Assembly (NCBI GenBank): GCA_973895155.1
Contig: OZ316896.1
Location: forward strand, 10,776,695-10,840,694
Origin: Marsupella aquatica
Taxonomy: Eukaryota > Plantae > Marchantiophyta
Length of the DNA: 64,000 nucleotides
Direction of reading: 5' to 3'
Made by a program: the position numbers and the translations under genes. Numbering within the stretch: the first letter of the stretch is position 1; each line of letters starts with the position of its first letter. Shown in pieces: positions 13,445-39,168 of this stretch. Below the pieces are notes generated by a model that was given only the letters and a program-made list of their open reading frames with translations, had not been told where the DNA came from and did not search any database.

Positions 13445-14199
13445 ACTAAAGCTGACTAAGCCAACTTCATCATTTAGATCATTTTGTGCTGTCTAAATTC
13501 ATTTCTATTGCAATGGATACAAATAGCTGCAATGGATACAAATAGATGGTCTATTTTGGTGGAATCTTAGTACTAATGAAGGCCAAATTTGAGAATTAAA
13601 CAAATGTCAGTGAATGATTAGCTTTCCACATAAGATACATATTGGGACACAAATGCATTCTAAGCCAATTTACCTAAGCCGACTTTAAGCCAATTTGACC
13701 TAGGAAAATTAGACCTGAGCTGACCTCACCTACTCCAATCTGACCAGAGAAAACCTTGGCTAAGCCAAGTTGGCCTTTGCCAACCTAATCTATGTAAGCC
13801 AACTTCAAAATTTAGACCTGTCCAGCTTTGCGCATTTTTAATTTCATTTCTATTGGCTAAAAAGGTGTGAATTTATTGCCTGATAGTACAGACATAGCCG
13901 TGTACTCTGGTAAAAGATCAGTGCCACTAGAGCTTGAAGTTGAGAAATAAAAATGTACAAAGATATATAAAATAGACTCAAAAATAGACAAAGCTAACCA
14001 GTGATCAGTTTGCCGCACTATACACAAATGTCTTCTATGTAAGGCCAATGACACCTAAGATGATTTCACCTAAGGCAGCTGATTTACCTAAGTTGACCTT
14101 AAGTTAACCTGACCTAAGCAGATCTGACCTCAGCCAAAATTTATCTGGTTAGTTTGTCGCAAAAGACATGATTAATGCCTTCTAAGCTGATTTGACCTA
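13445..14199. repeat. Degenerate ~15-bp (gacctaagc-core) repeat that the transposon inserted into; continues at 35496-35560
   Basis: Many gacctaagc / ctaagcc / tgacct variants left of the element, and gcagatctgacctaagcc...tgatctgacctagg right of it. Confidence 0.7.
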
Positions 14200-14223
14200 A
14201 ACCCCAATTTAAGGAAAACCGAA
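14200..14223 (+). repeat. Left terminal inverted repeat (preceded by TSD CCTA 14196-14199)
   Basis: aaccccaatttaaggaaaaccgaa; inverted match to 35472-35495. Confidence 0.9.
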
Positions 14224-14469
14224 CTTTGGAAATTCCGAAAATCACTAAATATTATTATTTTAATAAAAAGGGGGCGACATGACGCGTGGCTGCACGTGAA
14301 ACCCTGAAAATGACTGCAACGTCACATTTTAACCAATCCAACTTGACGGGACCAAGAGACATGCTCACGCGAATAATAATAATAATAGAGAAATAAATCT
14401 TTGAGATCCTTTATATATGATAACCAGTATATAAGGAGTTTACAAATAGTTTCTAGAACGACATACAAA

Positions 14470-15198
14470 TTAATCTGATCTCATGTTGACTATTATTTTG
14501 GAAGCGTCCAAAATTGGGCGTTTGTTAAATTGCTCTACTAGATATCTATCTCCATGCCTCTGAATCACAGGGTCTTCCCATAGAGTATGATTATAATCAT
14601 AATCTCTAAAAATAGATTTAACTGACCAATCTGGATAATCTCTTCCATTGGCAATGACAAGCGGCTCACAAGAGTTTGCTAGCTTGCTAAGATACGGAAT
14701 CAGCAAGTTAATCAGGAAACTATCGTCGACCGACCCAAAATATTTGGGCGGAAATAATGATCCAACAACAGGATCTAAACAAGCATGAAATGCATTGGAT
14801 TCGATAAGCATTATATTTTGCTGCAGATACGCCTTCGTATAAATTCAAACCTTCTCAAAACACTTCAAAAATATCCGCTTATTTGATGTCACCCCATCGC
14901 ATAAGTAACAATGAGACTGATCCCAAATATACTTAAATGAGGCCATTTCTATCACAGTAAAAATAGATGCTAAAATCTGATCTAAATGGTTCTTCCCAAG
15001 AGAGGACCAGATCCCTACATCGAAATTCTCAAAACAGAATCTCAAGAATTCGTGAAGATGAGGCCTTGGAAAAACGTATATATTCCCAATCCGAATTCCA
15101 GTTGAGACCGCCATCAGTTGGGAATGCAGTGCACTGTAACAGAGTAGATGCTCCACGTCTAAAACTAAGAGCCCATTTTCTCTGCTGCAATGAATCTC
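14470..15198 (-). pseudogene. FCP1-homology (NIF/HAD) domain, cassette 3
   Basis: LLVLDVEHLL, PRPHLHEFLRFCFENFDVGIWSS, YIWDQSHC, FLKCFEKV, NIMLIES and LFPPKYFG. Preceded by acceptor tctctatag, with no ATG. A single in-frame TGA at 14845-14847 joins the two ORFs. Confidence 0.85.
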
Positions 15199-15266
15199 CT
15201 ATAGAGAAACACAAGAAGATGCATGAGCCCGTATGGATGTAGTCACGCGAATGGTCGCGTCACATA

Positions 15267-15991
15267 TTACAGAGAAAACATCCTCTACACTCTGGCCATT
15301 GATAAGTGACGTCTGTTGAAGTGCTTGATAAGAACTTGATCCGCATGTCTCTACACGTACAGATGCTCCCATATATCCTCGTTCAGATCCCAATCTCGAT
15401 GTAGATTTCTAATCGACCAGATGGGATAATCAAACTTGTTAGCGAACGCAAGACAAAGCCCTGAATTTGATAGCTTTCGTAAATATGGAATGAGGTCATC
15501 CCTCAAAAAGACATCATCCAACGATCCTTGAAACGACTTAGCGAACAATAATCCGCATACAGCTGTCTGGCATGTATGGGAAGGACAGGCATCAATCTGG
15601 ATTATATTCTCTGGTCGATAATCTTGAAAATATCACGTAGTCTCTCGATAGATTTGAAGACAATAGTCTTATAATTTTTTTTCACATAACCAAGATTCCA
15701 GCAATGATCCCGCGTGAACACATATATCAGCTGCGACAGGTCGGTGCTCGACAACACTTCTGAAAGTATCTGATAAACCAGTTTATCGTCGAGAATAGAC
15801 CAGACCATCACATCAAAATGATCATAACAGAATTTTATAAGATCATGAAGATGCGGCCTCGAAACGACACATAGAGATCCGATACGAATTCCGGGTGTCG
15901 ACTTGAGCTGAGGAGTATATTTTGAAACAGAGCACAGGAAGTTTTCCAGTCCTAAAACTAGAAGTTTACGCGACCTGCTCCACTTAGACAC
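15267..15991 (-). pseudogene. FCP1-homology (NIF/HAD) domain, cassette 2
   Basis: RKLLVLGLENFL, RPHLHDLIKFC, FDVMVWS, VFKSIERL, then after a frameshift (~15620) NIIQIDACP...LIPYL. Preceded by acceptor tttacag, with no ATG. In-frame TAG at 15351-15353. Confidence 0.8.
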
Positions 15992-16116
15992 CTGTAAATG
16001 AACAATTCGATTCTCATATTATGCAATTGCAAACAACCACGCGACCCGGCGCGTCACTCCCAAAAGTTCAATTTCAATCAATTTATAAATAATAATTGAT
16101 AATAAACAATAAACGT

Positions 16117-16704
16117 TTACTTATTGGACTTATCCCGGGCTTCTATAGCACGGTCTTTTTTGGCAGATAAGTATTTCATAAATTCGTCAAACTTTTCTAA
16201 ATGGTCTTTATTCCCCTGATTACGAATGATCACGTTTCTCCTCCAAAGATTCGTCTTATCAATATAATCTTTCTCAAGATTTTCTTGAGAGAACATTGGA
16301 ATCCCATATCCACTAAGGAGCTCGCGGAATGTCAACTTGTCAATTGACATGTCACATAGATATGGATATAGTTTCTTTCTAAAAAATAGGTCATCATCGA
16401 GCCCAGAATATGCATCGGGATACATCGATGAATAGAAGTCATTAAGGCTCGTCTTATATGCAGCGTCATCGATAAGAATGACATTCTCGATGTTGTAATC
16501 TTTAATATCGGCGACAATGTTCGAGAGACATTTGACAAATAAAGGGATGTCATTATTATTCTTCCCAATAAGTCGAGTTGATTCTTGTCCCCATATAAAT
16601 TTAATACATTTCAAAACTTCGGGTCAAAGTATCAGCCTTACACAAGATAGAATATTCAGTTTGAACATGCACGACCAGATCGCAATGTCGTATAGATCTG
16701 CCAC
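16117..16704 (-). pseudogene. FCP1-homology (NIF/HAD) domain, cassette 1, N-terminus missing
   Basis: YDIAIWS...FIWGQE...FVKCLS...NVILIDDAAYKTSLN...YPDAYSG...LYPYL; in-frame TGA at 16624-16626. Confidence 0.8.
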
Positions 16705-16942
16705 CTGGGATTAGGCGCCATCTGTACCTGTGATTTTTGTGCTGCAGGGTTTGGAGAACGTACTAGAACGGTCTGTTTGTTTCTCGCCTCCGGACGATCA
16801 CCGGACTTCCGGACTGGTGCCTTCGATACTCGATCAGGGGGTTTTGGGATAGGCTCTTGTAAAACATTAAGAAATGAAAATAAGTTTATAACGCAAACGG
16901 TCGCGTGACTACAAAGAGAGATACTGAAATGAAGTGTATTAC

Positions 16943-17731
16943 CTGTACAAGACGGTCGTTCAGTGCTGGAATTCCACCAAAAATGTCAATCATAGCAGCA
17001 TGGATCCCGGTAACTAGGTTACTTGCGGACGTCAGCTTGCGGAAGTCCATGTCAAATAACGACAAGACTATCTCCCTACGGAATTTCTCAATTTAATCCG
17101 CGGCTAAATTAATTCCGTTTCCTTGACACAAGCACTTGGCGTATCTCAAGATAAACACACCACAACTATGGTCGTCACTCTGGTGAGGAATATCATTCCG
17201 ATATATCCGTTCCCAACCTGAGAGATCCAAGTTGACACCAGTTCTCCAGCCAATTTTGTCGGCGTAGTACTTCCCAACAATATCTAGCACCCCAGGATTT
17301 TGTCGATTATGAACTAGAGAATCTAGGTACTCCAGCCGTTTCTCCTTCGGATACAAGACTACCAATGACCAATGTTCTTTCACAGCATTGTGTACTGGAA
17401 AGACCAGTTTCTCGTATTCACTGATTTTTAGCGGAAACTCCTTTGTCCAAGCTACTCTCTCCTCGTCGAAAATGGTAGGATCCATGGAGAGAAGCTCAAA
17501 ATGGTGTGTTTGGAAGAATTTGACAAGGTCTAACTTTCCAACTCTATCGAGAATCAGTTCGAGAAAACTCAAATAAGCGTTAATTATATCATCGGTGAGC
17601 AACTTGCGCGGTCTCAGACACATCATATGTTTCCTCTGGATCGAGTGTTGTAAGAACTTGGTCAATAGCTCTTCCATATCCTTAGAAGGATCAAGGCATT
17701 GATCTATTCGACTAGCCAAATTTTCAAAAAA
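16943..17731 (-). pseudogene. Ulp1/C48 SUMO-protease domain (part of the multidomain gene)
   Basis: LRPRKLLTDDIINAYL, LVFPVH, EHWSLVV, EYLDSL and IPHQSDDHSCGVFIL show the His/Asp/Gln/Cys catalytic set intact. The C-terminal helix (IEKFRREIV) continues past an in-frame TAA at 17093-17095. Confidence 0.92.
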
Positions 17732-18759
17732 CTGCAAAAAATAGAGATTTCAGTACGCCTTCAAATAACGTACTGAGGTTGTAGCCTAAGGGTTGTAGCC
17801 TCAGAAAACAGAAACAATAACAGATCAATAATAAAATAATGACGTCTATAATAGAAACTTTAAGCTTATAGCTTGCGAATGACCTTTGGATTGGGTGGAT
17901 CCGGCCTTTTCGCAGCTGATCTCTTGGGTGCCTCAATCGCAACAACATCCTTCAGCCCTCCTCGAGACCGCAGTGATCGCTCCACCTGACCAGTTTGCGA
18001 AGGTTGGAGCGATGAGGCGGGAAGACCTTCAAATGGTTGTGGCATTTGATTCAAATATTCCACAATCTGGGAATCCGATTCCAAAATATCCGCTGCCACA
18101 ATTTCTGCGCGAGTCATCTCTGCAATATATCGGGGTCGAGACCACGAACCCGGTCGGGTCAAGTCAGCTGTTAGTCTCTTAACGACTTGAGCCGAGTCTG
18201 GTGCCAAAAACGTTCCCATGTCTTGCACTCGATTCTCGGAAAAGCGGACATTATTGATGATTGTCTCCATTCTGGATGCAGTGGCAGTCTTCTCCTCGGT
18301 AATCAAAAGACCCTTCCAATATTGCAAAGCAAGGACTGCTTGGACTCGGAGCTGCTCCAGTGAATATTTATTCCAATCATCCAACGAGACCGTACTTAAG
18401 GGTGGATCATTAAATTCAAACTTCGGGTGAAGAAAATAGTCTAATATTTTCTTCTTAACTGCAACTGAGGGTGAAGAAGGCTTCTTCAAATTCAGCCTTA
18501 TTTTTGGTAGATGTTGTGCCTCAGGATTAAGCGAAAGATCCTTGGCCCTCTCGGCCTCCTTCCTCGCTGCCTCCAGTCTTGCGGCTTCTTCTCTCTCCAG
18601 TCTTGTGGAATCGACCTTTTCCGCCTCCAACTTCTCTACCTCCACCCTCTTTGGTCTTGCGGTCTCGTCCGCCATCCTCTCGGCCAGCAGCCTCTCAGCC
18701 GCCACACTCTCCGCCTTGGCCCTATTTTCCTCTGTCACTAAAAGGACTCTCGCAGCCTC

Positions 18760-19460
18760 CGCTTTCTCAGCCTGGGCTTTCTCAGCCTCAACATTCTCGG
18801 CCTCTACTTTCTCCGCCTGGGCTTTCTCAGCCTGGGCTTTCTCAGCCTGGGCTTTCTGAGCCTGGGCTTTCTAAGCCTGGGCTTTCTCGGCCTCCGCTTT
18901 CTCAGCCTCCGCTTTCTCAGCCTGGGCTTTCTGAGCCTGGGCTTTCTCAGCCTCCGCTTTCTCAGCCTCCGCTTTCTGAGCCTGGGCTTTCTGAGCCTGG
19001 GCTTCCTCAGCCTCCGCTTTCTCAGCCTGGGCTTTCTCAGCCTCCGCTTTCTCAGCCTGGGCTTTCTCAGCCTGGGCTTTCTCAACCTGGGCTTTCTCAG
19101 CCTGGGCTTTCTCGGCATCCGCTTTCTCCGCCTGGGCTTTCTTAGCCTGGGCTTTCTCAGCCTGGGCTTTCTCCTTCTTCTTCGCGGCAGTTGCTTTTCT
19201 AGTTGTTGCCTTTTTCTTCTTAACCTCCTTCTTTTGAAGCTCCTCTTGTCGGGCCGCCTCTTGTCGGGACGCCTTCTCTTGCCGGCCGCCTCCTTCTTTT
19301 GAAGCTCCTCTTGCCGGGCCGCCTCCTGCCGGGCCGCCTCCTTCTTTTGAAATTCCTCTTGCCGGGCCGCCTCCTGCCGGGCCTCCTCCAGCCTGGCCTC
19401 CTCCTGTCGGGCCGCCTCCTCTCTGGCCTTCTCCTGCCGAGCCGCCTCCTCTCGGTCCAC
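18760..19460 (-). repeat. Coding tandem repeats: (EEAARQ)n then a 15-bp unit encoding (AEKAQ/AEKAE)n coiled coil
   Basis: gctttctcagcctgg / gctttctcagcctcc units on the + strand. They read as a charged helical repeat in the frame of the multidomain gene. One unit carries CAG>TAG at 18871-18873. Confidence 0.85.
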
Positions 19461-20303
19461 CTCATGTCAAGGCTCCTGTGTGGCCTCTTCATCAGAGTCC
19501 TCAACGTCCTCGGAACCCTCCATCTCCTCGTCCTCTTCATCAGCGTCCTCAGCGTCCTTCATCTCCTCTCCGTCACTCTCTTCATCTCCTCTATTGTCGG
19601 AATCTCCGACGTCGTTCTGCGTATCGGTCATCCACTCTGGATCTTGGTCATTGACATCCCCATCCGCATCACCTTCCGCGTCACCTTCCCTCTCACCATC
19701 CGCATCACCATTTCTCCCTGCATCCTCAACATTGAAGCCGCAGTCGACTTGATCTGAATAAAATCAGATCATTTGATAAGAATGACTCACGTGCATATTC
19801 GCGTGAAAAGAAATGTTATGAATGTCCACGCGCATGTTCGCGTGACGCAATAAAAAGTAAGAGGTTTCAAAAGTAACTTACCTTGGATTGGCCCACTAGG
19901 GTACTCCGTTGGTCGAATGTACAATCAATCGGAATCTTCAGAGAGTGCATACTCTTGCAATAATTGATTACAAATATTATCAGGGATATGTTGTTCGTGG
20001 AGGACATCCAAAACATCAGCCCTGAGAGCTGTTACGGATGGACGGTACTTCATTAATTTATCTATACATTTTTCTATACTAGCCCGTATTGGGTCAATCA
20101 ATGACAGCATTGTATCAATTGTCGCCGTGGTGTGTTGCAAGAAACAAGACAACTCCCTATGCGTTGCCACAGGGCAGTAATATTTTACATTGGATTCAGC
20201 ATCCTGTAAAAAAAGCCGAAATTAGTTCACAATATTAATTGAGAATATAATAATCTAAATAATCTTAAAATCAAAACCCCAAAATATAAATCTCAAAACT
20301 TAC

Positions 20304-20846
20304 CATTAAGCACTGGATCAAGTTCGTTCCCTCACCGAAGCATATAGCCCATTCCCCACATTGGACGAATTGACTAACAATACTTTCAAAGAATGGAAGT
20401 ATCTTTTCTGGGGAAGGTGTCGTGAACTCGCCACTCTCTTCAAAATTGGCTATCTTCTCAATCTGATATTTGGAGACCAATTGGAACTCGAGGGCTTGTG
20501 GATCGCCCATTGTGCTGAAGGCCAAGCTGTGAAAAGCGTAGGTTACAATAAGCTTCTTCTCCTTCGGTCGCTTCTAAATATGATGGCTATCGATAGCAAC
20601 GTAGTGTGTGTACTTCCCTAATTCTCGTTTGATTAAGTAAGACTCAACGGGAGAGGCTACAATAATAACCACATGGTGTGGTTTTGTCCCTATCTCGCTA
20701 GTAGCACGAAATAACCCCTCATAGAATGAGCAATTTGGCGGACGCAAATCTCCCATTGATGAGGGATCAAAATAAATCAAGCTCACAAAGTTCTTGTCTT
20801 TACGTATGATACAGTCTGCAAACCCAGCATTTTGTATATCCTGCAA
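20304..20846 (-). pseudogene. Degenerate beta-class N6A/N4C DNA methyltransferase-like domain (part of the multidomain gene)
   Basis: VSLIYFDPSS resembles catalytic motif IV (vdLi.tDPPY). Downstream KILPFFESIVSQFVQCGEWAICFGEGT resembles motifs X-I (KP..l...li...s..Gd.VlD.F.GsG), in beta-class order. Both motifs are degenerate. Confidence 0.4.
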
Positions 20847-21706
20847 GGATCACAATTTCAGCCTCTCACCGACCGGCCGCACTAGTTGGTTTCCTTGACT
20901 ATCAACTGATTTCTGTATTCCTTCGACCAACCTGTAGAATATAGGGTCGATCTCCTTCAACAAATTATCATTACTAATATTTACATTTAAGCACTTCTTC
21001 AGATAACCACTCAACGCATCTCTCAACTGCTTCAGCACCATCTTGTCGAGCTTAAAGCGATCAATCATTCCTTTGACCCGCAATTTCCGCGTTGAATCTG
21101 TCAGAATTTTCAGCTCCGTCCGGGTGGATGTTTCCCCGTTGATTTTACTCAATAATAAAATCTCAAACTCAACTTTCATCTTCTTCTTTATACAGAATTG
21201 CTCCAAACTCATGCTGGTCGTTGACAACACTGGAGCCTCAGAGGACTTCCTCGCCTTCCCAGATTTCACTTTGATGCTTCGGTTTTTGAGTATAGACAGT
21301 CTTCCGCTCAACATATATTCCGCTGCCTTTCAAAGAACCGAGTCTGAGCACCCTTGACAAGAACGGAATGTCATCTTCAAAAGATGATAAGCACACGGAT
21401 TATCCGCAATTTTGACGGCGTCCCTCTGTAAAATTCCGTTGTAAATTACAAGCTCTCCTGTCCTTGATAGTTTGTAGACCTCCATCCACTTCTTGAATGT
21501 TTTGTCCTCCATTGTAAAGAGAAACGGAGCCAATTCTCCAAATTTCATCATTTTGTTCTTCCCCATTTGAGCCCATGGGCAAACAAAACTCGTAGCTCTC
21601 ATAAATACCTGAAAAACAATGGAAACATGACAATTTAAGCTTGACGCGACCGTTTGCATGACAAAAGTTTATACGATAATGTGATCGAAGAGGGTTATTT
21701 ATATAC

Positions 21707-22507
21707 CTTCCAATTTGGATGATGATAATGTGATCCAGGCCGCCCAAATGAGTTCCAGATATTACGACACTGTCGTACAATGGTGAGAAACTGTCCTTCT
21801 TCCATTGATGTTTGATGACAATGGTTCAGAGCTTTCGATAATCCCATCAAATGAACATTATTGTCGTTGTTGAGCGTTGCCCAAAACATTACAGCTTCTA
21901 CAGTACCGCAAGCGTCTCGTACAACTTGGTTGACTTTGTCGTCCTCTCTCAGCAATTTGTACGCCATTATTGTGTGCTGGCCTCTGAGTATCCAAAAATG
22001 ACTGGTCATAATGTCCTCCTCCTTTGGCAATGAATCGTAGGGCGTCCCATTGTAGTCGGGATCTCTGTCGGCCTCCGACTGAACCCACTTCACAGGGACT
22101 AAAAAGCAGCATCGCTTCTCGAAGTTTATAGCCGAATGAGAGAGGAGTGAATTCTTTAGCCTATCTGTGTAATCCTGATTCCACTCTCGGCACTTGATGT
22201 GGTCCGGTGCAAGATGACAACGTGATGTCTCAACAAAAAATGACTTGCTGTTAAATATATTCACAACACTATATTCTTTGAGGAAAGAATCGAACAGAGC
22301 CCCAACATTTGCTGAGGTAATTACTTTCGGAAGATTCTCCGTCGAGTATACTTCAACCTTGCTCACTGGCGGGGCCTTACCCAAGCGAAATCCCTGGTTG
22401 AAAGGAACTCTCTGGAACTCAAGTACGTCCATAATGTATTGACAAATCAAATCTCCCGTTGATGCCTCTGGATCGGAAGGATATCCCACACTAGTAACCT
22501 TTTCCAA
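21707..22507 (-). pseudogene. ParB/Srx-like domain (N-terminal part of the multidomain gene)
   Basis: IKCREWNQDYTDRLKNSL...CFLVPV...FWILRGQHTIMAYKLL resembles the ParB-type R...V..L...(I/L)xGxHR/T..A signature. Confidence 0.65.
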
Positions 22508-22781
22508 GGCGTGCCTTGCACCTAGAAGATCATTGATTCTGGGCTGATTGAAGGTTACATATTGCGTTCAATCCAAACAAATGCTTATTTTGTCTTCCTG
22601 CTGGTCGTCGCTGACTAGCAGAACCAATCCCTCTGTACACTCTTTAACTTTCATGTTCTTCTCAAAGAAACACCCGAGAATTTTTTATCTCTCCAAAACT
22701 GTAGCTTTATCATTTCTTGCCACCACAAGACGGACAGCCCCATTGCGAACGACTATTCCAAAATCGGATATCTCAGTCGAT

Positions 22782-23288
22782 TCAAAGAGATGGATACTCT
22801 TTTTCATCTAACCAAAACCAAAGGTTCCTAAACGTGTCAAGTTCAGATCCTTCAAATCCACCCAGAATGTCCAGCGGTGGGAGAGTTCTGATGGATTCTG
22901 TAAATCCTAATGCTACACTCCGTGAAGTCAAATGCCTTCGAAGCGATTCATATCCTGGTCTATCAGTGAAGTCGTAAGCTACCAAGGTGACCGTCGCCCA
23001 AGTACTACTATAAGTAACTATGTGGCACCACTTCTTACTGACTGTTCGAATGGTGATCAAGTCCATGACCCGATTTTTAATCGTAGTATCCGACAAATTC
23101 CCAAGATAGTGGAAAAACTCTTTGACTAATGGCCAAATATATTTCTCGACAATATCGTCCGGAAGACCGGGTATCAGGTCTTCAGCTTGACTCCATATCA
23201 TGTTTCGGTTCATAACCTTTGCACGTGCAATGCGCTCCATCATCATTTGACGATGAGATTTTTGATTCATGTCAAAGGATTGCAGCAT
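22782..23288 (-). CDS. F-box-like protein 1 (168 aa, intronless, transposon cargo)
   Basis: LIPGLPDDIVEKYIWPLV...LITIRTVSKKWCHIV is a plant F-box signature with an insertion. The reading frame is open. Confidence 0.75.
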   Translation of the reverse strand: MLQSFDMNQKSHRQMMMERIARAKVMNRNMIWSQAEDLIPGLPDDIVEKYIWPLVKEFFHYLGNLSDTTIKNRVMDLITIRTVSKKWCHIVTYSSTWATVTLVAYDFTDRPGYESLRRHLTSRSVALGFTESIRTLPPLDILGGFEGSELDTFRNLWFWLDEKEYPSL

Positions 23289-23322
23289 AATATGGAAAAG
23301 ATTAAGAACAAGAACCTATCCA

Positions 23323-23889
23323 TTAAGAACTTGGACCACCAAGATTCTGAGAAAATCTACCAAACCTTTCGATTAGGACATCTCGTTCTTCCTCATCTAA
23401 ATTGTTATATTTGTTCGTAAACAATGCGATTTCGTCAGAAGTAGTAGTCCCAAGAACAGATATTTCTGGAAGCATAGAAATATCCTGTCGAATAACTCGA
23501 CAGACTGAGTCAAACTCCAACTCGTCAGTTTCGGGTATGTCGTAAAGAGCATCATTTGCGACATCGACAATCCGGTTTGCTTGTTTGAGGATAGCCCATA
23601 ACTTTGTATTTGTAACTAAAAAGTTCCACTTCTTGCTACAAGCTCCAAGCCGAATAAGGTCTCGGACCCTATCGATAACCAAATTGTTATCGAGGTGTCG
23701 ATATCCACGCAATCTTTCAATTGAAATAAAGTGTTCATAGAGTATTGGCCAAATGTTTGAAATGACCAAAACATCTGGTATTCCTCCAATGAGACTAGAG
23801 GAGGTTTCATCCAGCGTATCCCATATTGTTTTCTGTTTCTTTTCATGAGTTGAAAGGAAATCTTGAGCCTCATTCAAAAGTTGGCTCAT
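23323..23889 (-). CDS. F-box-like protein 2 (188 aa, intronless, transposon cargo)
   Basis: LIGGIPDVLVISNIWPIL...LIRLGACSKKWNFLV; paralogous to its neighbours. Confidence 0.75.
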   Translation of the reverse strand: MSQLLNEAQDFLSTHEKKQKTIWDTLDETSSSLIGGIPDVLVISNIWPILYEHFISIERLRGYRHLDNNLVIDRVRDLIRLGACSKKWNFLVTNTKLWAILKQANRIVDVANDALYDIPETDELEFDSVCRVIRQDISMLPEISVLGTTTSDEIALFTNKYNNLDEEERDVLIERFGRFSQNLGGPSS

Positions 23890-23954
23890 CCTGCTTTTAT
23901 CATATCACAAAACATTGTTAGAAGACATACGACGCGCTTGGTCACGTAAGTTAA

Positions 23955-24506
23955 CTAGAATTCCTTAAAAGCATAGATGTCACCCTCAAGGTATCCAACT
24001 TCGTGGCATCTGATTGTAAATTTCCATTTTTCAAGAGGGTGAAGAGCATCGTAAGTCTTTGTGAAGAGTTCCCTAAGATCTCTGGACATTGACCCCATGA
24101 ATTTAATTCTTGGGTATTTTTGGAAGAAACTTTGAACTGTCGATGAGAGAGACTCATTTCCGATCGGTTTAGTAGGATTTCCTGGGAAAGCCAAATCTAA
24201 TAAACTCAACTTGATTACACCCAGAAGATAGGTATTCCCAACAAGGTGACGCCATCTGCGACACACCGAAGATAGTCCTACAAACTCATCCAATTCCTTT
24301 ATTGAGAAATTTCCTGCATTAGCCGAGGAATTAAAAGTCTCCTGGATCCGAGGCCATATCAATTCCGCGACAATGAAATCTGGAAGTCCAGGTAGTAGTG
24401 TTTCAATAAATACAGAATATCCCGCCAGTAGACCATCTTGGCTTCTGTCCAAAACGTCAAATATTGGGCATAGATATCTGAAGCTCTTCAGACCAGGTTT
24501 GCCCAT
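23955..24506 (-). CDS. F-box-like protein 3 (183 aa, intronless, transposon cargo)
   Basis: LLPGLPDFIVAELIWPRI...VGLSSVCRRWRHLV; paralogous to its neighbours. Confidence 0.75.
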   Translation of the reverse strand: MGKPGLKSFRYLCPIFDVLDRSQDGLLAGYSVFIETLLPGLPDFIVAELIWPRIQETFNSSANAGNFSIKELDEFVGLSSVCRRWRHLVGNTYLLGVIKLSLLDLAFPGNPTKPIGNESLSSTVQSFFQKYPRIKFMGSMSRDLRELFTKTYDALHPLEKWKFTIRCHEVGYLEGDIYAFKEF

Positions 24507-24639
24507 GACTCTTTTCAGCCAAATGATATATCCTAGAGATTATTTTCACGCGACTGGTCGCGTCTACAAATCAGAATGCATAAACAATTCTTTGAGAGAC
24601 TAATTTTTTCGGGTCACAACGTGAAAAATCATAAATGTT

Positions 24640-25505
24640 GCTTCGTCCTCTAACAGAACCAGTCAATGAGAGAGCAACCTCAGACGCGACTGGTCGCGTC
24701 AACTGAACCTAAACAACTATATCCACTGAACCTTCTGTGGAGATTTGGATATGGTACGCGCTCAGTAAATCTATCCAGTTTCCTTCTCACACGCGACTGG
24801 TCGCGTCAACTGGTCCTAAAAGGAACCTTACCTCCTCTAACAGAACCAGTCAATGAGAGATCTACATCAGACGCGACTAGTCACGTCAACTGGTCCTAAA
24901 AGGAACCTTACCTCCTCTAACAGAACCAGTCAATGAGAGAGCTACCTCAGACGCGACTGGTCGCGTCAACTGAACCTAAACAGCTATATCCATTGAACCT
25001 TCCTTGTGGAGATTTGGATATGGTACGCGCTCAGTAAATCTATCCAGTTTCCTTCTCACAGCGACTAGTCGCGTCAACTCGTCTTAAAAGGAACCTTATC
25101 TCCTCTAACAGAACCAGTCAATGAGAGAGCTACCTCAGACACGACTGGTCGCATCAACTGAACCTAAAGAACTATATCCACTAAACCTTCCTTGTGGAGA
25201 TTTGGATATGGTACGCGTTCAGTAAATCTATCCTGTTTCCTTCTGACACGCGACTGGTCGCGTCAACTGGTCCTAAAAGGAACCTTACCTCCTCTAACAA
25301 AACCAGTCAATGAGAGAGCTACCTGACGCGACTGGTCGCGTCAACTAAACCTAAACAACTATATCCACTGAACCTTCCTTGTGGAGATTTGGATATGGTA
25401 CGCGCTCAGTAAAATCTATCCAGTTTCCTTCTCACACGCGACTGGTCGCGTCAACTGGTCCTAAAAGGAACCTCACAATATTTTCACGTGACTGGTCGCG
25501 TCAAC
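24640..25505. repeat. Internal tandem array (~187-bp unit plus an ~80-bp partial) rich in ACGCGACTGGTCGCGT palindromes
   Basis: cctctaacagaaccagtcaatgag recurs at about 24647, 24834, 24914, 25102 and 25291, with two palindromes per full unit. The array lies upstream of the F-box/ParB cluster. Confidence 0.92.
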
Positions 25506-28044
25506 AGCTCAAACAACTTTTGGACAATAGGATAATACAGTGATACAACTGTGATTACTGACCCGTACGGACAAGGAAATCCGAGTAAGCATGATTTCAT
25601 TCATTTGTATTCATTCATGAACTTTACAATAATTCAGATGTTTGAGCTCTGTCATTGTGAAACTATTATATATCAGAAGTTTAGAGAATGATCCAGTTAA
25701 GATGATTCAATTTAGCAGTCTACTGGTTGTATTCGTCAATTAAAGGATTCAGTGTAATGAGATTCACATAACATGAGAGTTTATATGATTAAATTCACAG
25801 CGTGCAAGTTTGTAATGACTTACTTAAGACGATTTAGGTTGTATTTTAATTAGTGAGTTTGTATGATTCACACATATTTGAGTTTACAAACAAACCGCAT
25901 TATGAAAACTGTGCTTAACAATCAAGAGAAATTTTAGCAAACCACAATCAACACCAGCAGAAAATGTAGAAATTACACCTGAATTCTGAAAAATTGATGT
26001 AATCGTTTGAGAGATTGACATCCAAGCACTTGAAGACCTTGCTGCGGCATTCCAGAAAGTAAATATAAGATTGAAGATATTAATATGCTAAGCAACAACA
26101 ACACAGCTTCTATACTTCTATACATAGAGCTTCGCTGCCACCAATTGAATAACATGTGCTTAATGCTAAGGAGCTCATTATGTCGAGTTAAAAAGACTCT
26201 TTCAAAAGTACAATCAAAGCTGTGGATAGGCAAACTGAGCATGAATAAAAGCGCACTAAACCTGAAGATTCAAAGAGATGAAACAAACCTGAATGCTGAA
26301 TGGAAGGAGCTAAAACAAGCTGCCAAAAAGTAGTTCGAGCTGCTGAAACACGTTGATCGAGCTGATATGAGCTTAAAATTGGCTGACACGAGCTGATACA
26401 AGCACTCCCAAAAAGCTAGCTGCAACGAACTAGCAAACTAGAAGTGAATACGAGTTGTAAATGCGAGCTGCAATGCGCCAACGAGCTCCTGGTCGAAACG
26501 ATGGACAACTACTAAGAGCTGCAACGCGCCGACAAGCACCTGACCACAACGAACAAGCTGCAACGACAAAAATGAAATCCAGGGCAGGAGCAAGAGCGAG
26601 AGCGACGAGAGTGAGAGAGAGAGCGACGAGAGCAGGCACGCGAAAGTCTAGGGAGCAAGAAACAACAACAATGAACAATGAACTCGAGACCGTGGGCGCC
26701 GACACTAAGAAAGGACTAATTAGGGTATTGTTTTAGCATAACCCTAATAACAGCCTAGCGACAGGAAGGTTCCAAATGATCTTCGTACACTCCACCATCG
26801 ACTGAACAAACTATGCAATCGTGAAAAAAAGATTACCAGATTCCTTTTGATTTGCCGTACTAAAGGAGATTTCTATTTGATCGCCAATTTGAAATTTAAA
26901 CCGGTAATTATGCAACTGCGAAAGATTGTTAGTGGGGACCCCCGGATCCGTATCTTCACTATATCTGCCAATTCAAATCCAAAATGTGAACGAATGACAA
27001 CTTTCTCACGATTGTTCCATCACGTAGTGGAGGCGAACTTCAAAATCATTCCATTTTGGTAGTGGAGACCGTCGGATCCGGATCCGTACTCCACTCTCTA
27101 TCTTGCCAATTCAAACCCTTACTCTAAACAACGTAAAACGATTCTCACGGTCGGGGAGAACCGATATTCAAAATCAATCTTATACAATGATTCTCACGAC
27201 TGGAGACTCAACCAATTTTCAAAATCAAAATCGAGTCCAGATGAACACATCCTCCATGGAGTCAATAGACTGATCTCATTGCTCACGGATCATTCTTAAT
27301 TTTCAATTTCTCCTGACCAAGATACTAGGCTCTCAGCGGAGGCTGATCCAAGGCACATTTGAGGTGGAGCAGATTGGATCATTCAACTATTCCAGTCGGA
27401 GGCGGAGCTCATTCAAGCAACGATGGCGCAGTTCTTGTAGTATCACCTTCAATCTTGGGGAGAGCACATCCGATCAAGCAGGAGAGTTGCGACGAAGCGA
27501 GACGACAAACATTTAGAACCTCCATAGTCTGCCTCATTCATCAAAGCATTCTAGCGGACCAACAAAGAGCGGCTATTCTGAAATCACAGTCTGGTCAAGG
27601 ATTTTGATCTTGATACGATCAACAAGTTGTCATTCTCTGGTGGTGGGATTCGATCATGATACTCAAGGAAATTGGAGTTCGAAGGAGGAGGCTTAGTTGG
27701 CTGGGACGAGGAGGCTACGCTGGAAGGAAGAGGCTTGGCTGGGAGGAGGGTTTCCGCCAACATCGGAGGGTTGCCACCAACATTTGCTCAGACCACACGC
27801 AACTGAATAACTTGTAAGTATCAATCAGCATTAATTCCGCAATAAATGAGGAGAGTAGTTGCCTTAAATCACGCATTCAATGCATGAATTGAGTCAATGA
27901 AGTTATGGTCCAATTTCTCACTCCGATTTTGATCAATCCGTGTTTCAAGTCCAATACAGAAGCAATGTATCAAAAGTACTAGTAGAGGATCCGAATGAAT
28001 TCTCTAGTCTAAAATTGTATGGCGTACGCGTATAGTTGTCCGTA

Positions 28045-29000
28045 CGTTTTGCTATTGTTTATTGTAGTCGACGACCTAGCAAAACGAAACATAATCGAGG
28101 TCCATTTTTGAGATCTTCCTAATCTCAACTTGTTAGTAGGATGACCTGTTTTTTGGTTACACATGTAGTTTGTCACGTGCACAGTCGCTTGAACCAATTT
28201 ATCTCGTGTCTTTTGATATTGTTTATTGTAGTCGACAGCCTAGCGAATTGGCCAGCAATCTATTTTAAAACCAACGTCTTCGTTTCATCACGCGCACGGT
28301 CGCGTTAATTTTTTAGAGGTCAGCGAAAGCTCTGCACTCTTAGACGTAATCGCCCTTTATTTCTCAGATCTTCCTGATCTCAACTTGTTAGTAGGATGAC
28401 CTATTTTTTGGTTACACATGTAGTTCATCATGCGCACAGTCGCGTGAACCAATTTATCTCGTGTCTTTTGATATTGTTTATTGTAGTCGAAAGCCTAGCG
28501 AATTGGCCAGAAATCTATTTTGAAACCGAGTTCTGATTCACGCAACCGGTCGCGTTAATGTTTTAGAGGTCAGCAAAAGCTCTGCACTCTTAGACGTAAT
28601 CGCCCTTTATTTCTCAGATCTGCCTTATCTCAACTTGTTAGTAGGATGACCTGTTTTTTGGGTTACACATGTAGTTCATCAGGCGCACAGTCGCGTGAAC
28701 CAATTTATTTTGATATTGTTTATTGTAGTCGACTGCCCAGCGAATTGGCCAGAAATATATTTTAAAACCGAGGTCTTCGTTTCATCACGCGCCCAGTCGC
28801 GTTAATGTTTTAGAGGTCAGCGAAAGCTCTGCACTCTTAGACATAATCGCCCTTTATTTCTCAGATCTGCCTGATCTCAACTTGTTAGTAGGATGACCTG
28901 TTTTTGGTTACACATGTAGTTCATCACGCGCACAGTCGCGTGAACCAATTTATCTCAGGTCTTTTTGATATTGTTTATTGTAGTCGACAGCCTAGCGAAT
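28045..29000. repeat. Internal tandem array (~250-bp unit, ~4 copies) with ACGCG-N6-CGCGT motifs
   Basis: tctcaacttgttagtaggatgacc occurs at about 28123, 28377, 28628 and 28875. Motif copies such as acgcgcacagtcgcgt and acgcgcacggtcgcgt are in each unit. Confidence 0.92.
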
Positions 29001-29205
29001 TGTCAGTCAGAGGAATCTTGATTTTTCCTTGATTGCAAAAATGGTTACATCCATCCCAAAGGACTTCGGATGTGGAATCCATATCCACTAGCACTATCCA
29101 GGAATTTAAGCTACACAATATCTATAACAAGTTCTAACTTGAACTACTCTTGAATCTGTAGTTCTAATCTTCGACTACTCAAAATATTTGTTGACTTCGA
29201 TCGAG

Positions 29206-29748
29206 TCAGTCATTCCAAGATGAAGGCATCCACTCATCGGTGTCTGGTGTGGATTCCCTTGAATCCAAAAATTCTTCCTTTGCCCAAGTCCTAACGTCCA
29301 TAGATTTTCTCGGCTTTCTCTTTCTGTAATACAAATCAGAATCTTCGTTCATCTCTAATTGCCTTTTCTTCGGTGCGTCCACTTTCTTGGCCTCCTTCTT
29401 GACTGTCTTAGCGTCTGCTGCTGCTTCCCCCAAAATGGATTCGACGCATGCTCTGGCCTTCAACTTTTCCCCCCTCGAAATAGATTCCACGAGGGCTTTG
29501 CCCTTTAACTTCTCCCCTGATGCCATCTTTGTAGTCATCTCTGTCGGATTGGTCTCCATCTGATCTTCCATCAACAAATGTGGCGAACAATGTCGTCTCT
29601 CACAAAACATTTGACCCGATTTAGTCATCGTAAACATTATATTACATCGCTGACACATTCTGTAAGGAATACCATGAATTTGATACGTCAAACCTTCTAA
29701 ATTGTCCGTCGGAACATCCTCATTCTTCGAGCTCAGCGGAGTAGTCAT
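29206..29748 (-). CDS. Small Cys4 (putative zinc-binding) protein with basic NLS-like patch, 180 aa, transposon cargo
   Basis: Intact ATG-to-stop ORF with CQRC-x13-CERRHC, YYRKRKPRK and an acidic tail. A TATAAA lies on the minus strand about 130 bp upstream (~29878-29883). The ORF is divergent from the transposase. Confidence 0.6.
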   Translation of the reverse strand: MTTPLSSKNEDVPTDNLEGLTYQIHGIPYRMCQRCNIMFTMTKSGQMFCERRHCSPHLLMEDQMETNPTEMTTKMASGEKLKGKALVESISRGEKLKARACVESILGEAAADAKTVKKEAKKVDAPKKRQLEMNEDSDLYYRKRKPRKSMDVRTWAKEEFLDSRESTPDTDEWMPSSWND

Positions 29749-30064
29749 CGCCCTTCAAACAAGAGATGCTGACCGAGACTAAGAATTGGAAATGAGAGAG
29801 CTGATGTGCGAATAGATTATCCAGTAGCCAGAAAGTGGAATGCGTGGGGGAATGAGCAATAGGGATCATCTCAATGCTTTATACTGTTTAGTCTCCACTA
29901 GTCATTGTACATAGTGGTTTCTAGAAGAGGGTGCGCGTTTGACTGGCGCGTATTAGAATTGGCGGGAAGTTCAGTTGTCCTCTAATTATGGCTTTAATTT
30001 CACGTTTGGCGACCGCCCCGGGAATACTGATTGCTAGTGAAGTACTGAGATTTCTTATGAAGGT

Positions 30065-30800
30065 CAGTAGTTACTAACTGTCCGGTGTCCACTCATTGGT
30101 AAACTGGTATTGTCCACTCATTTTTCCTGAGTGGAGTTGAAATGATTGTTCGGTAATCAATTGTAGTCGTTCTCATTCACTTGAAATGACTGATGGACCA
30201 TGCATTATCTTTACCGGTATGTGTGATGCCTTTAGATCCGTAATTGTATCTTCCTGTCTCACGCGCAATCGTATCTTACTTATGAAGTACCAATTACGAG
30301 CTAGAGTTTGGGCCTAGCCTTCTAGCTTCTACGTCGTAGACCTTGTACCCTCTGACTAAGGTCACGCGACATACCTTTAGATCCGTAATTGTATCTTCCT
30401 GTCTCACGTGCAATCGTATCTTACTTATGAAGTACCAAGTACGAGCTAGAGTTTGGGCCTAGCCTTCTAGCTTCTACGTCGTAGACCCTGTTATCCCTAC
30501 ACCCTCTGACTAAGGTCACGCGACTAGTCGCGTGCAAGGCAGTGCATAATTGACTATATTCTGCCTACTTATTGACGGTTGTGACAGGACAATGCAGTTC
30601 ACAGACATTTTACTGGCGCTTATTAGCACTACTGTCCTCAGTAGTTACTGACTGTCCACTCATTTGTTCTAAGTGGATGTGAAATGATTGATCGTAATCG
30701 ATTGTGGTCATTCTCATTCATTTGACATGACTGATGGACCATGCATAGTCTGTTGCCGGTATGTGTGGTACCTCTAGGGTCACGCGACCAGTCGCGTGCA
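30065..30800. repeat. Direct duplications in the divergent promoter region upstream of the transposase
   Basis: An ~145-bp unit occurs twice (30229-30370, 30374-30525). 30065-30225 resembles 30640-30765. The perfect palindrome cacgcgactagtcgcgtg is at 30517-30534 and a near-perfect copy at 30781-30798. Confidence 0.85.
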
Positions 30801-30924: not shown

Positions 30925-33900
30925 ATGGTGACATCGACAGTCTGGATCAGGGAAGGCGGACAAGTTATTATAGGCATACGTGAGAAATAGGTTGGAAAAG
31001 GTCGCGTGATAAGTCTTGATCCTTCTAGGGTTTGTCACAATGTTCCTCTTGGGGCGGACAGAGTTATTCTTCTATTGGAGGAAGTTTTTGACGAGACCAT
31101 TCTATGCGAAGATGGCGAACTTTTGAAGGACATGATTGGGGGTTACCTTGTATGGGAAAGGAATCAGCTTTTTCGAGCTCCCATGGAATTGGAGGATGTG
31201 TTTGGCACTGTTGGTGATGATCAGGATCCAGTCAATCAAAATTCTGATGGGAACAACCATAATGAGAGTCGGTCTGGTGTGGAAGTAGTTTTACCAAAGG
31301 CCTTGTGGATGGGCATGCCTGTAAAGGTGGTGGATGAGAACAAGTTGATTTTTGCAGTGGCAACTATACATGTTCTAGATCCTATAGTGAAGCTTGGGGA
31401 TGTCACCCTTGGGAATACACATGTGGGAATTCTGATCAACGATTTTGTCGAGGGAGCTACCATAGATCATCTGAAGCATAGAGATTGCTTAAAAGCTTGG
31501 TCGATGGACCAACTCATTGCCAAGGATGGCAACTTGTTGTCTTTCCACAACATCAGGCAAGCTGTGGGAGGGAACACATCTCCAACAAGTGGCAAGCGGT
31601 CCTACATCCATAAAAGTAGGAAAAGAAAGAGTCCATCTTCCCAGACATCTAGAAGAGACACATCTTTGGCACGTCAAGATGTGTTGTTGATAAACACTAA
31701 GGACTGTTGTAGTGAACATTGTTGCCAATATTTGGACCGCAACTTGGCTATGGCAATTAGGCAAAAGTGGTGGTCAAAATCTTTTGCGGAGCGCAAGGAG
31801 GAGGAAATCAAGGCTATTAAAAATACAATACACTTGGGTACTTGAGAAAGGATTCTAGCAGTGGAGGGCAAAGTATTGTGCTTGGAGGCATGGAGAATCA
31901 TTCATTCAAGAGGAAAGACTCAATTTTATGCCTTGAAGAAGACTGTGATGGCTGGAATGAACATAGGTACCCATGGTAATGCTGGAAAAAGGCGTATGTC
32001 CGAGAAAGTATCTCAAGCGTTCATGTTAATGAAAGAGATTATTGAGGAGGCAGCTGATCATCATCCAGCCAAGTTGAGAACCATGGCAGATAATACAAGG
32101 ATGGTTTTGAGGGAATTGCCAACAAATCTTACTTGGGAGAATATTAGAAACAGGGTTAATGTTGTCAACCAGGAGGCTGGTCTTCCTCCAATTTCCCAAC
32201 CCACCTTGGGTCATCTACATCAGATGTATTTCAGGGAGTTCTCACGTCACAAAAAGGGCACCAACTTTTCAAAGTGTACAACTTGTAGTGAGTTGCTTCA
32301 ACGGAAAGCAAACCTTACAGGAGCTAAGGAAGAGTTAGAGGGCCTAAGGCGTGACGAGGAGGAACATCACCAAGACCACACACAACAAAGAATGTGCTAT
32401 CATACCTGGAGATATGAGTCCATCCATCGTCCAAAGGAAGTGTTATGCCTTATTCATGATAAGATGGATCATTCAAAGACAGCCTTCCAAGAATGCCCTT
32501 CAATCCTAAGCATGTGGATGGTGCCCAAAAGTTCCCAATTACTGTCACTGGTATCCTTACTCATGGTCATGGTCCCAAGGCCATAGCCCAATATCATGTT
32601 GGAGTGTGGCCAGGTGATGTCAACATCACTATTGGGTCAATTGATTCAATACTAAGGATGTTGGAAAACCCAAATCCAATGATCAAATCACTTGTGGAGG
32701 GGCCAGACTCGACAAGTCTTTTTAAAGACCTCCTTTTTGGGAGAGCAGATATCTTGGAGGCAAGTGTCCTTAGAGCATTTGAGGATGACATTACCTACAT
32801 CTCAAGCCTAGGTACTTTACTCACAATCCTTTAATTTATTATTATTTAATAATATAAGCTCACACACACACTGACACTCTACTTTGTGTAGTTGTTGCTC
32901 CTCCTAGCCAAGGTTTCATTAATAGGGTTTAAACCCTAAACCCTAAATTGGGGTTTAGAGTCTGACTAGGGTTTTATTTAAAAGCATTCTGAGATTGTTA
33001 CATTGTGATGCAGTACCTGAGGCACCAAAGTTCAGGCCCCTTCCACGAGTATTGAAGCTACAACTGGATAATTGTGCCTCAGACAACAAGAACAGATATA
33101 TGATGGCTTATTTGTCATTGTTGACGGCAAGGGAGGTGTTTGAAGAGGTTCATCTTGGTTTTATGGTGGTTGGGCATACTCATCTCGGGGGTTTCACTTC
33201 CACAAAAATGGCATATCACGTGCGACGAAGTATAGGGTCATTTTATTGGTTCAAAGGGAAGACTTAAGAATTTTCTGAGAAGAACAATAGGGTCTTTTAA
33301 ATCCAATTTTGAGACTTATAAGAACATTAGGGTCCTTATAACCAAAATTTTGGAATATTCCAAGAATATTCCAACTTTATAGGGGTTGAAAAAATAAAAA
33401 AAATTATTATATTTTAGGGGGTCCGAGGCCTAAAAACGTCGCAAGTGATAGGGAGGCATCCGTATAGTGAGACCCCTGAGATACTCATGAGGACGTTGAC
33501 GGTATGTTCGGGCATTTTTCAGAGTCTATGATGCATAACCCCACATACTCATTGCCTGAGTTAATGTCCTTGTTCATGAGAGCAAGGGCACCCAATGCAG
33601 TCCCACATTTTCTACAGGAGGTCCCAGATTTCAAAAACTACTTAGCTCCATTCATGTTGAAGGGCCCTGAGGCATTGGTGGGGCATTTAAAACCCAGGCT
33701 GTTTAGGTTCTATGTTCGTCATGATAGTATGCCATGCTTCCAATACAAAATGAAGTCAACTGATCAGGGATGGTTACCCAAGGAAGGTATTGAAATGTGG
33801 TCATGGAAAGATGACAAAAGTCCTCACATCCCAATTGGGGTGCCCAAACGGCTACCAATGATGGAGTTGAAAATGCTTCCTGAAGTGCTGACAGGGTTGA

Positions 33901-34607
33901 AGAAGCATGTGTCATTCTTTGAGTTTATTCTAAAGCAAACAAAAGAGGAAGAACCAAAGCGACATTGGACAACTCTCATCAATTATTGGAATGACATTGT
34001 AGATACTCTACAGGGTGAGCAGGTGCAATATGAACCTGAAGGTGCACACAACTTGGAATACGGGTTTTGGCCTTTATCAATATGGAGAGAGCACGTTCCA
34101 CCAGAATATCGAAATGTGGCATGTGAGTTGGAGGCAACAGTGGATTATGTGGGACCAGCAAAAGATAAACCTCCTGAGAGTTTTAACCCTAGGGTTGATG
34201 TTGTGAAGGGCTGTTATGTGTTGGTACGGCCGGACGACTCAGACCTGGATGTTTATCCTGTCCATATGGGGTTAGTTGTTACAGATGTGGTAGAAGGACC
34301 AGTGAATGAACAAAACCTTCTTACTCATGTATGTGGCGTTGAGTGGTTTAGACCATTTATGGCAAAGAAGCAACGTGGTCAATCAGACTGGCAGCCAAGA
34401 GAGCGGTGGGCAGATTCTTGGGATAAGAAATGGGAACGTGATCCATCTCCCATATACAAGGAAGCTGAGACAATAGATGTTTCCTCTGCCTTGTGGTGTT
34501 TCAAAGCACGCAAAGGACCAGTGACAGGGCTGGTAGGAATTCCAAAGAATGTTGTTGTCGAGGCAAGAGACTATCTCTTGACATGCATAGCAAGTGACAA
34601 ATCCTAG
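30925..34607 (+). pseudogene. DDD transposase (Sola-like / DUF7869-type), disrupted
   Basis: Stitched from ORFs 31006-31845, 31861-32586, 32493-32834, 32995-33267 and 33504-34607. Catalytic-type motifs are LCLIHDKMDHSKT, VTGILTHG, LQLDNCASDNKN and VGHTH|EDVDGMF. Cys/His motifs are CCSEHCC, LCLEAW and FSKCTTC. ATG is at 30925. Lesions: TAG 30988, TGA 31843, a 1-bp deletion near 32485 (KTAF-PRMP) and the MITE at 33184-33480. A GT-AG intron runs 32812-33013, possibly containing a 21-nt mini-exon at 32892-32912. Confidence 0.85.
33184..33480. mobile_element. 297-bp MITE with 8-bp TSD (ATACTCAT), hAT/P-type TSD length
   Basis: TSD atactcat at 33176-33183 and 33481-33488. TIRs ctcgggggtttcact / agtgagacccctgag match 13/15. 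A subterminal inverted pair tatcacgtgcgacg / cgtcgcaagtgata is present. The interior is AT-rich and non-coding. Removing the MITE restores VGHTHEDVDGMF. Confidence 0.92.
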
Positions 34608-35471: not shown

Positions 35472-35495
35472 TTCAGTATTCCTTAAATTGGGGTT
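35472..35495 (-). repeat. Right terminal inverted repeat (followed by TSD CCTA 35496-35499)
   Basis: ttcagtattccttaaattggggtt; reverse complement aaccccaatttaaggaatactgaa. Confidence 0.9.
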
Positions 35496-38165: not shown

Positions 38166-39168
38166 GACACATGAGGTAGCAAGCAGGCAGGCAGGCAGGG
38201 GAAGGCGAAGCGAGAAAGTGGGCAGTCACAGAAAACAGCTTCTTCTGTGAATTCGATCGCAGGAATAGTACAGTGGTGGCGGATTAGCGAGCCGTGGTCG
38301 AAGCGCAGTAGTGCCGGCTTGATCTGGGATTCGTGTGGACCGTGCGTAACATTTCATTTTGTTCACCACGTTTCGCGAAGTGGGTGCAGCTGCTGTCGCC
38401 ATTCGGTGGCCCTTCTTCCCCTGTTCTGGCACAGCCGTGTCGGTATGTATGTCCCGATCAGAATTAATCAATCATATGTTTGGATGGTATCCTCATATTG
38501 CTCTGGAGCTGTTTCCTGATCGGAGATGGATGATTGTGTTGCATTGCATTGCATTGTTTTGATTGATTGATTTATGGATTGATGAATGAATCCGGAATGA
38601 GGTTGATTCATCCCCGTCGTTCGTTCTGTTCTCCGTCAGTCAGGATTGGGCATTTCGTACATTGGTCGTTAGATGTCACAGTTTACAAAGACCCTTACAA
38701 ACTTTTGGGGTTCACCTTTGTATCTTTCAATGAGAATGTGCTTCTGGAGAGATGTTTCTGGGTATGACGACAGCATTTCTTATGCTCGAGGCAATGCCAT
38801 ACCGTTTCCTGTAGTGTAGTGATTGAAAAGGAACGAAATCTGTGAACGAATTTGAAAATTGGACAGCATTGATTTGGACCGGAAGGATAATGCTGCAATG
38901 TAGATAGATTCTGGCCGTGGTACGAGTGAATGCTGGATGCGAAGGGATGGTTTTGGTGGAACTTATTGAGTTTTCAGGAGACGTCAAGATGGAGATCTGA
39001 GATTTGGTGCCGTTGGTGGGTCGTGCATGTGTTGAGGGGGGGAATGCTACCTTGATGGCCTGGGTTGTTTCTCGTTCGCTGGCTGACAAGCGTCCAATTG
39101 TTTTCCACCACTCTTCGCTGTTGTGAAGTCTGGGACGTACTCTCTGACCTTATGCAGGGTAGGCAGCA

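Follow-up and report, generated by a model that had tools for sequence, protein, structure and literature searches.

Sequence-specific counter-silencing by plant transposons has been worked out mainly for the VANDAL elements, in which VANC proteins bind a motif located in non-coding repeats and introns of the element (PMC5735166 and PMC10398659, accessible sections); the action on host factors is left open in the same sections of PMC5735166. Some VANCs carry an Ulp1 domain, according to the sections of PMC13317346 at hand, and no F-box cargo of VANDALs is named in the corresponding sections of PMC5735166, PMC10398659 and PMC13317346. Ubiquitin- and SUMO-pathway domains have also been reported in other mobile elements. 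An F-box is cited for a Zisupton isoform in the available part of PMC12062965, and Helitron-like elements carry FBA_3, OTU, UCH and Ulp1 domains (PMC11417382, excerpt), while the screen performed in PMC12062965 itself gave, in the same part, no evidence of F-box capture by transposons. Among viral proteins, the polerovirus P0 shows the consensus LPxx(L/I)x10-13P, and P0 of Brassica yellows virus binds SKP1 for protein stability and not for silencing suppression (PMC6593998, available portion).

The locus described here, from the liverwort Marsupella aquatica, carries what its sequence indicates to be a conserved transposon-borne family of F-box variants in an element of VANDAL-like architecture. 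Neither the family nor the element was found in the literature searched, with most subscription papers and Repbase reports outside that search, and the accessible sections of PMC5751038, PMC4455052 and PMC13182070 contain nothing on either. Set beside the screen of PMC12062965, whose accessible part reports no evidence of F-box capture, the triplet is a concrete case: its genes are small and conserved, and 43 relatives of them were identified. The features of the element are collected in Table 1.

Table 1. Features of the element and of its F-box triplet, in positions of the window (the whole 64-kb stretch of DNA analysed).
Feature	Position	Strand	Basis or remark
Left CCTA target duplication (14196-14199) and 24-nt TIR (14200-14223)	14196-14223	+	
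Second triplet, degenerate NIF/FCP1-phosphatase-like repeats	14470-16800	-	Pfam NIF E 7e-8 and 4e-12 (two of three)
Giant multi-exon accessory gene with Ulp1 domain	16946-22802	-	Peptidase_C48 E 7e-16; exon joins inferred
Probable deletion junction, 3' part of FB1 to inside of giant gene	22802-22804		Loose contig ends
FB1, split mini F-box gene, 168 aa	22782-23288	-	Some 20 codons probably missing at the 3' end
FB2, split mini F-box gene, 188 aa	23323-23889	-	ORF, Pfam and clade comparison
FB3, split mini F-box gene, 183 aa	23955-24506	-	ORF, Pfam and clade comparison
80/188-nt tandem array directly upstream of triplet	24541-25511		11 copies of CG-rich motif
255-nt tandem array	28104-29002		4 more motif copies
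180-aa ORF, divergent from transposase	29206-29748	-	No family match
DUF7869 transposase gene, broken	30991-34607	+	Pfam PF25273 E 1.6e-20
297-nt insertion in transposase gene	33184-33480		8-nt target duplication; short imperfect inverted ends
Right TIR (35472-35495) and CCTA target duplication (35496-35499)	35472-35499	-	

The element spans 21.3 kb (14200-35495); its terminal inverted repeats (TIRs) are identical at 22 of 24 nt and CCTA stands on both sides. It is inserted in a short-period degenerate host repeat (13660-14199) that resumes at 35496-35560, and this continuation on both sides supports the called ends. The triplet lies inside these TIRs and target duplications, in agreement with the transposon location proposed by the first-pass annotation, and is cargo of a multicopy TIR DNA transposon. 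Over the triplet and the beginning of the giant gene, all 30 bins contain variant contigs, of 80-100% likeness over the triplet, in the sequencing runs of two organisms (X1 and X3; 709 and 610 contigs), contig depth being no measure of copy number. No contig spans the distance from the triplet to a TIR, and two further runs (X5 and X6), with small shares and low depth, were excluded as evidence of host range.

The transposase gene encodes acidic motifs of the D..D..H/E type, as expected of a transposase-like protein, and is interrupted by one stop, one frameshift and the 297-nt insertion, which occupies 33176-33488 when its 8-nt target duplications are included. We take that insertion, from the length of its duplication, to be hAT-like, and the DUF7869 element itself, with its 4-nt duplication, may resemble the Sola superfamily; DUF7869 was not mentioned in the literature searched. 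The left arm bears, on the minus strand, the 180-aa ORF, the two tandem arrays, the triplet, the giant gene and the NIF-like repeats. The giant gene, of about 1,800 codons, comprises an N-terminal half, an acidic tract, a coiled region with 28 copies of a 15-nt repeat and the Ulp1 domain; an interpretation of its N-terminal half as ParB-like and methyltransferase-like was abandoned, as searches against Pfam, PHROGs, NCBIfam, PDB and phage sequences did not bear it out. The third NIF-like repeat was assigned by visible similarity. The motif DxDxT, which we take to be the catalytic one, is absent from both recognisable repeats, and these may be pseudo-phosphatases or decayed.

The three paralogous ORFs of 168-188 aa that had been noticed at first inspection are all present on the minus strand, separated by 65 nt (FB3-FB2) and 34 nt (FB2-FB1). 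Their paralogy is supported by BLASTP (E 5e-15 and 2e-12), with 34% and 25% identity of the other two to FB1 (overall range 25-34%), and no fourth paralogue was found in the window. As judged from sequence, an intronless structure fits their continuous homology. FB3 is full length compared with its own clade (P0003, P0005 and P0009), and the insert of FB2 exceeds that of its own relatives (clade P0002, P0004 and P0006) by 6 aa.

Profile comparison placed the three proteins closest to F-boxes. For each of them the top Pfam family was F-box or F-box-like, with E-values of 0.002-0.013 and scores of 15.8-18.3 bits, below the curated cut-off of 20.5 (PF00646/PF12937), and the match covered only the C-terminal half of the domain. 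The N-terminal half is recognisable by motif and is separated from the C-terminal half by an insert. The distance from the LP motif to the final W is 46, 52 and 45 residues in FB1, FB2 and FB3, compared with 28 in the canonical F-box of P0027, counted by hand, which gives an insert of 17-24 aa and agrees with the split F-box with an insert of about 20 aa read by the first-pass annotation. A PDB search with the three-sequence profile returned a single match, the Skp2 F-box (E 0.58), and with a 46-sequence profile the Skp2 F-box supplied the top 4 of 15 matches (E 0.13-0.26). The LP motif, the helix 2-3 signature with its closing W, and the W-x-x-L linker of Skp2 and other SCF F-box proteins align with the triplet, whereas the conserved insert between the F-box halves sets the triplet apart from them. 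A structure model built from the three-sequence alignment had a mean pLDDT of 43 and was unusable. Taken together, motif and profile similarities indicate that FB1-FB3 are F-box-derived. The insert could block SKP1; we consider it fairly probable, because both F-box halves are the best-kept positions of the family, that it extends the helix 1-2 hairpin and leaves the F-box unbroken. A constant insert of this kind would widen what an F-box is known to tolerate, and it also explains why the family was missed by profile searches: among the 43 relatives, 10 match an F-box at E<=0.05, one of the 43 exceeds the cut-off and 33 give no match.

C-terminal to the F-box, no substrate-binding domain was recognised in Pfam, PHROGs or NCBIfam, in agreement with the first-pass annotation. 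In contrast to SCF F-box proteins with LRR, kelch or FBA domains, the triplet carries a module of about 60 residues in which F, LP, LG and W are kept, so the C-termini are not mutually unrelated, as the initial description of them as short and unrecognised might suggest. Shuffling supported their similarity for FB1-FB2 and FB2-FB3 (0/1000 in both) and for FB1 and a metagenomic relative (L001; 2/1000), and gave no significance in three of the six pairs. The metagenomic relative, a single ORF of about 250 aa (L001:187-941 on a contig of 1,079 nt), has one frameshift in the insert, an acidic tail and no DNA match to the window. A C-terminal substrate domain is not obligatory for every F-box protein.

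The relatives were obtained by a full profile search over 1.84 billion representatives, which yielded 49 matches, of which 43 were kept as family members. Six long repeat proteins (P0015, P0020, P0027, P0033, P0035 and P0038) were dropped; what similarity they have to the C-terminal module is noise added up over repeats and identifies no domain, and P0027 is a tandem canonical F-box protein. Word-based searches with FB2, with the three-sequence alignment and with a fragment of the giant gene returned no matches, because of their low sensitivity, since the full profile search did find relatives. None was found in the viral contig collection. Conservation, counted in matches selected by that same profile, is highest in the F-box core, with P43 in 39/43 and W87 in 42/42 relatives and hydrophobic residues at L42, I46, V47 and I51 in all 43; the insert shows hydrophobic periodicity throughout, and in the C-terminal module P137 is kept in 28/34 and an aromatic residue at 157 in 33/33. 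The span from LP to W is 44-49 residues in 27 of the 29 properly measured rows, three further rows being pattern mis-hits and 14 of the 46 having no pattern match.

In a tree restricted to the 36 rows that reach 140 aa or more, FB1 groups with P0001 (support 99/96), FB2 with its three relatives (99/96) and FB3 with its own three (100/100), and a constraint joining FB1, FB2 and FB3 in one clade was rejected (p-AU 7e-53). Each paralogue thus clusters with outside relatives, and the subtypes must be older than the split from those relatives. Between paralogues, synonymous sites are saturated (pS 0.79-0.82; pN 0.40-0.53) and no match was detected at the DNA level. The possibility, raised together with the initial description, that the genes are near-identical recent captures evolving neutrally therefore fails. 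Variation among element copies was also informative: in a 166-nt stretch of FB2, all variants at a 2% share number 20, of which 10 are synonymous compared with 22-28% expected (P 0.006-0.03), with no stop and no indel at that share, while across the three ORFs 9 of 29 variants are synonymous, close to neutral, among the best-supported 40 of 139 rows; linked changes within codons may blur both counts. These data point to the triplet being old genes that were under past protein-level constraint, and not recent neutral captures.

The open frames of this particular copy tell a different story. The first-pass annotation had contrasted the stop-free triplet with a neighbour carrying about 10 stops. 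The triplet is indeed open. The giant gene, whose exons were deduced from GT-AG borders and reading frame and amount to about 1,794 codons, has 9 internal stops and one frameshift, a tenth stop preceding the first ATG. At the rate of the neighbour, about 2.7 stops would be expected in the 539 codons of the triplet, and the probability of finding none is about 0.07 (0.05 if the neighbour is counted with 10 stops), so that their absence lies within chance. Two stops of the giant gene are private to this copy, with 88-97% of the depth in runs X1 and X3 showing the sense codon, and the triplet has 11 private changes among the best 40 of 139 variant rows, 7 of them non-synonymous, which is what neutral decay would give. 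This copy of the element is dead and decaying neutrally, and together with the probability above this means that open frames here are no evidence of present function. FB1, moreover, is probably not intact. Its tail after the F-box W measures 81 aa, compared with 102 aa, 21 more, in its closest relative, P0001. Loose contig ends lie on either side of 22802-22804 in three of the four runs (X1, X3 and X6), which indicates that other copies of the element have extra DNA at this point, and the letters of these ends, read by hand in the FB1 frame, give an acidic stretch with W and Y spaced as in the P0001 tail. This copy has therefore probably lost the end of FB1 and the start of the giant gene by deletion. 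The junction at 22802 is bridged by none of the contigs listed, most pieces being outside that listing. FB1 appears to overlap the first part of the giant gene; this overlap was rejected, the deletion having probably created it.

The resemblance to VANDAL elements concerns the architecture of the whole. As in the VANDAL/VANC/KAONASHI systems, a short motif has amassed in the non-coding tandem repeats and introns of a large multi-gene DNA transposon, and an accessory gene combines internal repeats with an Ulp1 domain, as described for VANDALs in the available sections of PMC13317346. The motif is a CG-rich palindromic 16-mer, all 20 matches of which at two or fewer mismatches fall inside the element (chance 0.01); at three mismatches 26 of 27 do so, none of them in coding intervals, these intervals having been drawn after the motif had been seen and 11 copies belonging to the array that supplied it. 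The remaining copies are spread over the second array, the region upstream of the transposase and probable introns. The copies range from 14272 to 30797, with single ones at 15245, 16039, 16891, 19828, 21644, 23932, 30518 and 30782. The observed/expected CpG ratio is 0.82-1.04 in the accessory arm, whereas the transposase has only 0.32 and the flanks 0.43-0.58, and this high ratio suggests that the accessory arm long escaped methylation. The 16-mer and the high CpG of the accessory arm may be more striking than the triplet itself. In contrast, VANDALs are non-TIR Mutator-like elements, whereas the present element ends in TIRs, is flanked by a 4-nt duplication and encodes a DUF7869 transposase; no VANC homology was found, and the motif is different. 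By analogy, the natural counterpart of VANC, and the better candidate for a sequence-specific factor, would be the giant Ulp1 gene and not the F-boxes. A counter-silencing setting for the whole element is supported only indirectly, through these features, and such a setting does not identify the F-boxes as silencing suppressors. At FB3 and FB2, a motif copy and then an AG shortly precede the ATG (24533, 23891 and 23932), as in the motif-bearing introns, and the arrangement of the sequence makes alternative splicing of the F-box genes from one shared leader possible.

The reading that we prefer, and hold tentatively, is that the triplet encodes old SCF adaptors of the element that recruit host proteins, likeliest chromatin or silencing regulators, to ubiquitination. 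The F-box genes would in that case let the element hijack the protein-degradation machinery of the host, which is likely. From what is known of F-box proteins, FB1-FB3 would contact host SKP1 by way of an F-box whose helical hairpin is lengthened, and the context of the genes suggests that the short C-terminal module would bring host proteins to ubiquitination and that the three subtypes would differ in target. The Ulp1 SUMO protease, the phosphatase-like repeats and the F-boxes could together constitute a kit for altering host protein modification. The same context makes silencing or chromatin factors the likeliest class of target, an identification that we regard as doubtful. The comparison with polerovirus P0 put forward by the first-pass annotation found no support in the sequence: the P0 consensus is absent from all three proteins. 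The likeness lies in a small parasite-encoded protein and in the LPxx(L/I) start of FB1 and FB3, whereas no FWR block is visible in FB1-FB3 and no search detected homology. Compared with the cargo of Zisupton and Helitrons, the triplet shares the association of a mobile element with ubiquitin/SUMO-pathway domains and differs in its stand-alone genes, its three stable subtypes and its DUF7869 transposase. The boldest extension, that giant DUF7869 transposons of liverworts independently evolved a VANDAL-like counter-silencing arm in which a motif-binding Ulp1 protein is accompanied by three stable F-box subtypes, each sending a different host silencing factor to degradation, is speculative and, taken whole, improbable. 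Were it true, stand-alone F-box genes would for the first time have been shown to serve a transposon in the way that P0 serves viruses.

Several other explanations bear on the same evidence. The proteins are very small and have no known substrate-binding domain, as would be expected if they were decoys that bind SKP1/CUL1 without a substrate and damp host SCF, or that use SKP1 for their own stability, for which P0 of Brassica yellows virus provides a precedent. A decoy has little need of the conserved C-terminal module or of three retained subtypes, and we consider this unlikely. Equally unlikely is a helical scaffold, remodelled by the insert and free of SKP1 binding, with the transposase or the giant Ulp1 protein as partners. 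The constant amphipathic insert and the weak F-box scores speak for it, but the best-kept positions are precisely those of the two F-box halves, the LP motif and the final W included. The origin of the genes raises a separate question, namely whether a tandem cluster of a liverwort host F-box family was captured as a passenger, the signal of selection being inherited from the donors. Plant transposons often capture host genes, which mostly end as pseudogenes (PMC13317346, available sections), the count over the three ORFs is near neutral, and some of the 43 relatives, known without genomic context, may be host genes. Against capture stand the synonymous excess among element copies in FB2 and the lack of ORF indels there, the very short gaps, with a copy of the element's motif in the one that separates FB3 from FB2, and the dispersed near-identical copies in Calypogeia fissa, and on balance it seems rather unlikely. 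This liverwort is the only organism named among the relatives, in 4 of 28 family clusters examined, and CAM6125138.1 and CAM6118169.1 are full-length family members among its annotated proteins; one of its clusters has five members of at least 90% identity on five contigs, two of them shortened, and such dispersal is what a mobile gene would give.

It is very improbable that the triplet belongs to a toxin-antidote or spore-killer module in which the F-boxes remove a poison encoded by the element, an arrangement favoured by the haploid-dominant life of liverworts. F-box genes are mentioned in nematode toxin-antidote systems (PMC12062965, available part), but no toxin-like gene was identified in the element, which decays here without visible constraint. 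The substrates of the F-boxes would indicate which host proteins are most important for a transposon, and liverworts have a tractable model in Marchantia.

Outside the element, the window contains spliced, plant-like host genes. Two of them, in tandem and with multiple exons, lie at 39150-43903 and 46140-49810, and we presume from their appearance that they encode Gfo/Idh/MocA oxidoreductases.
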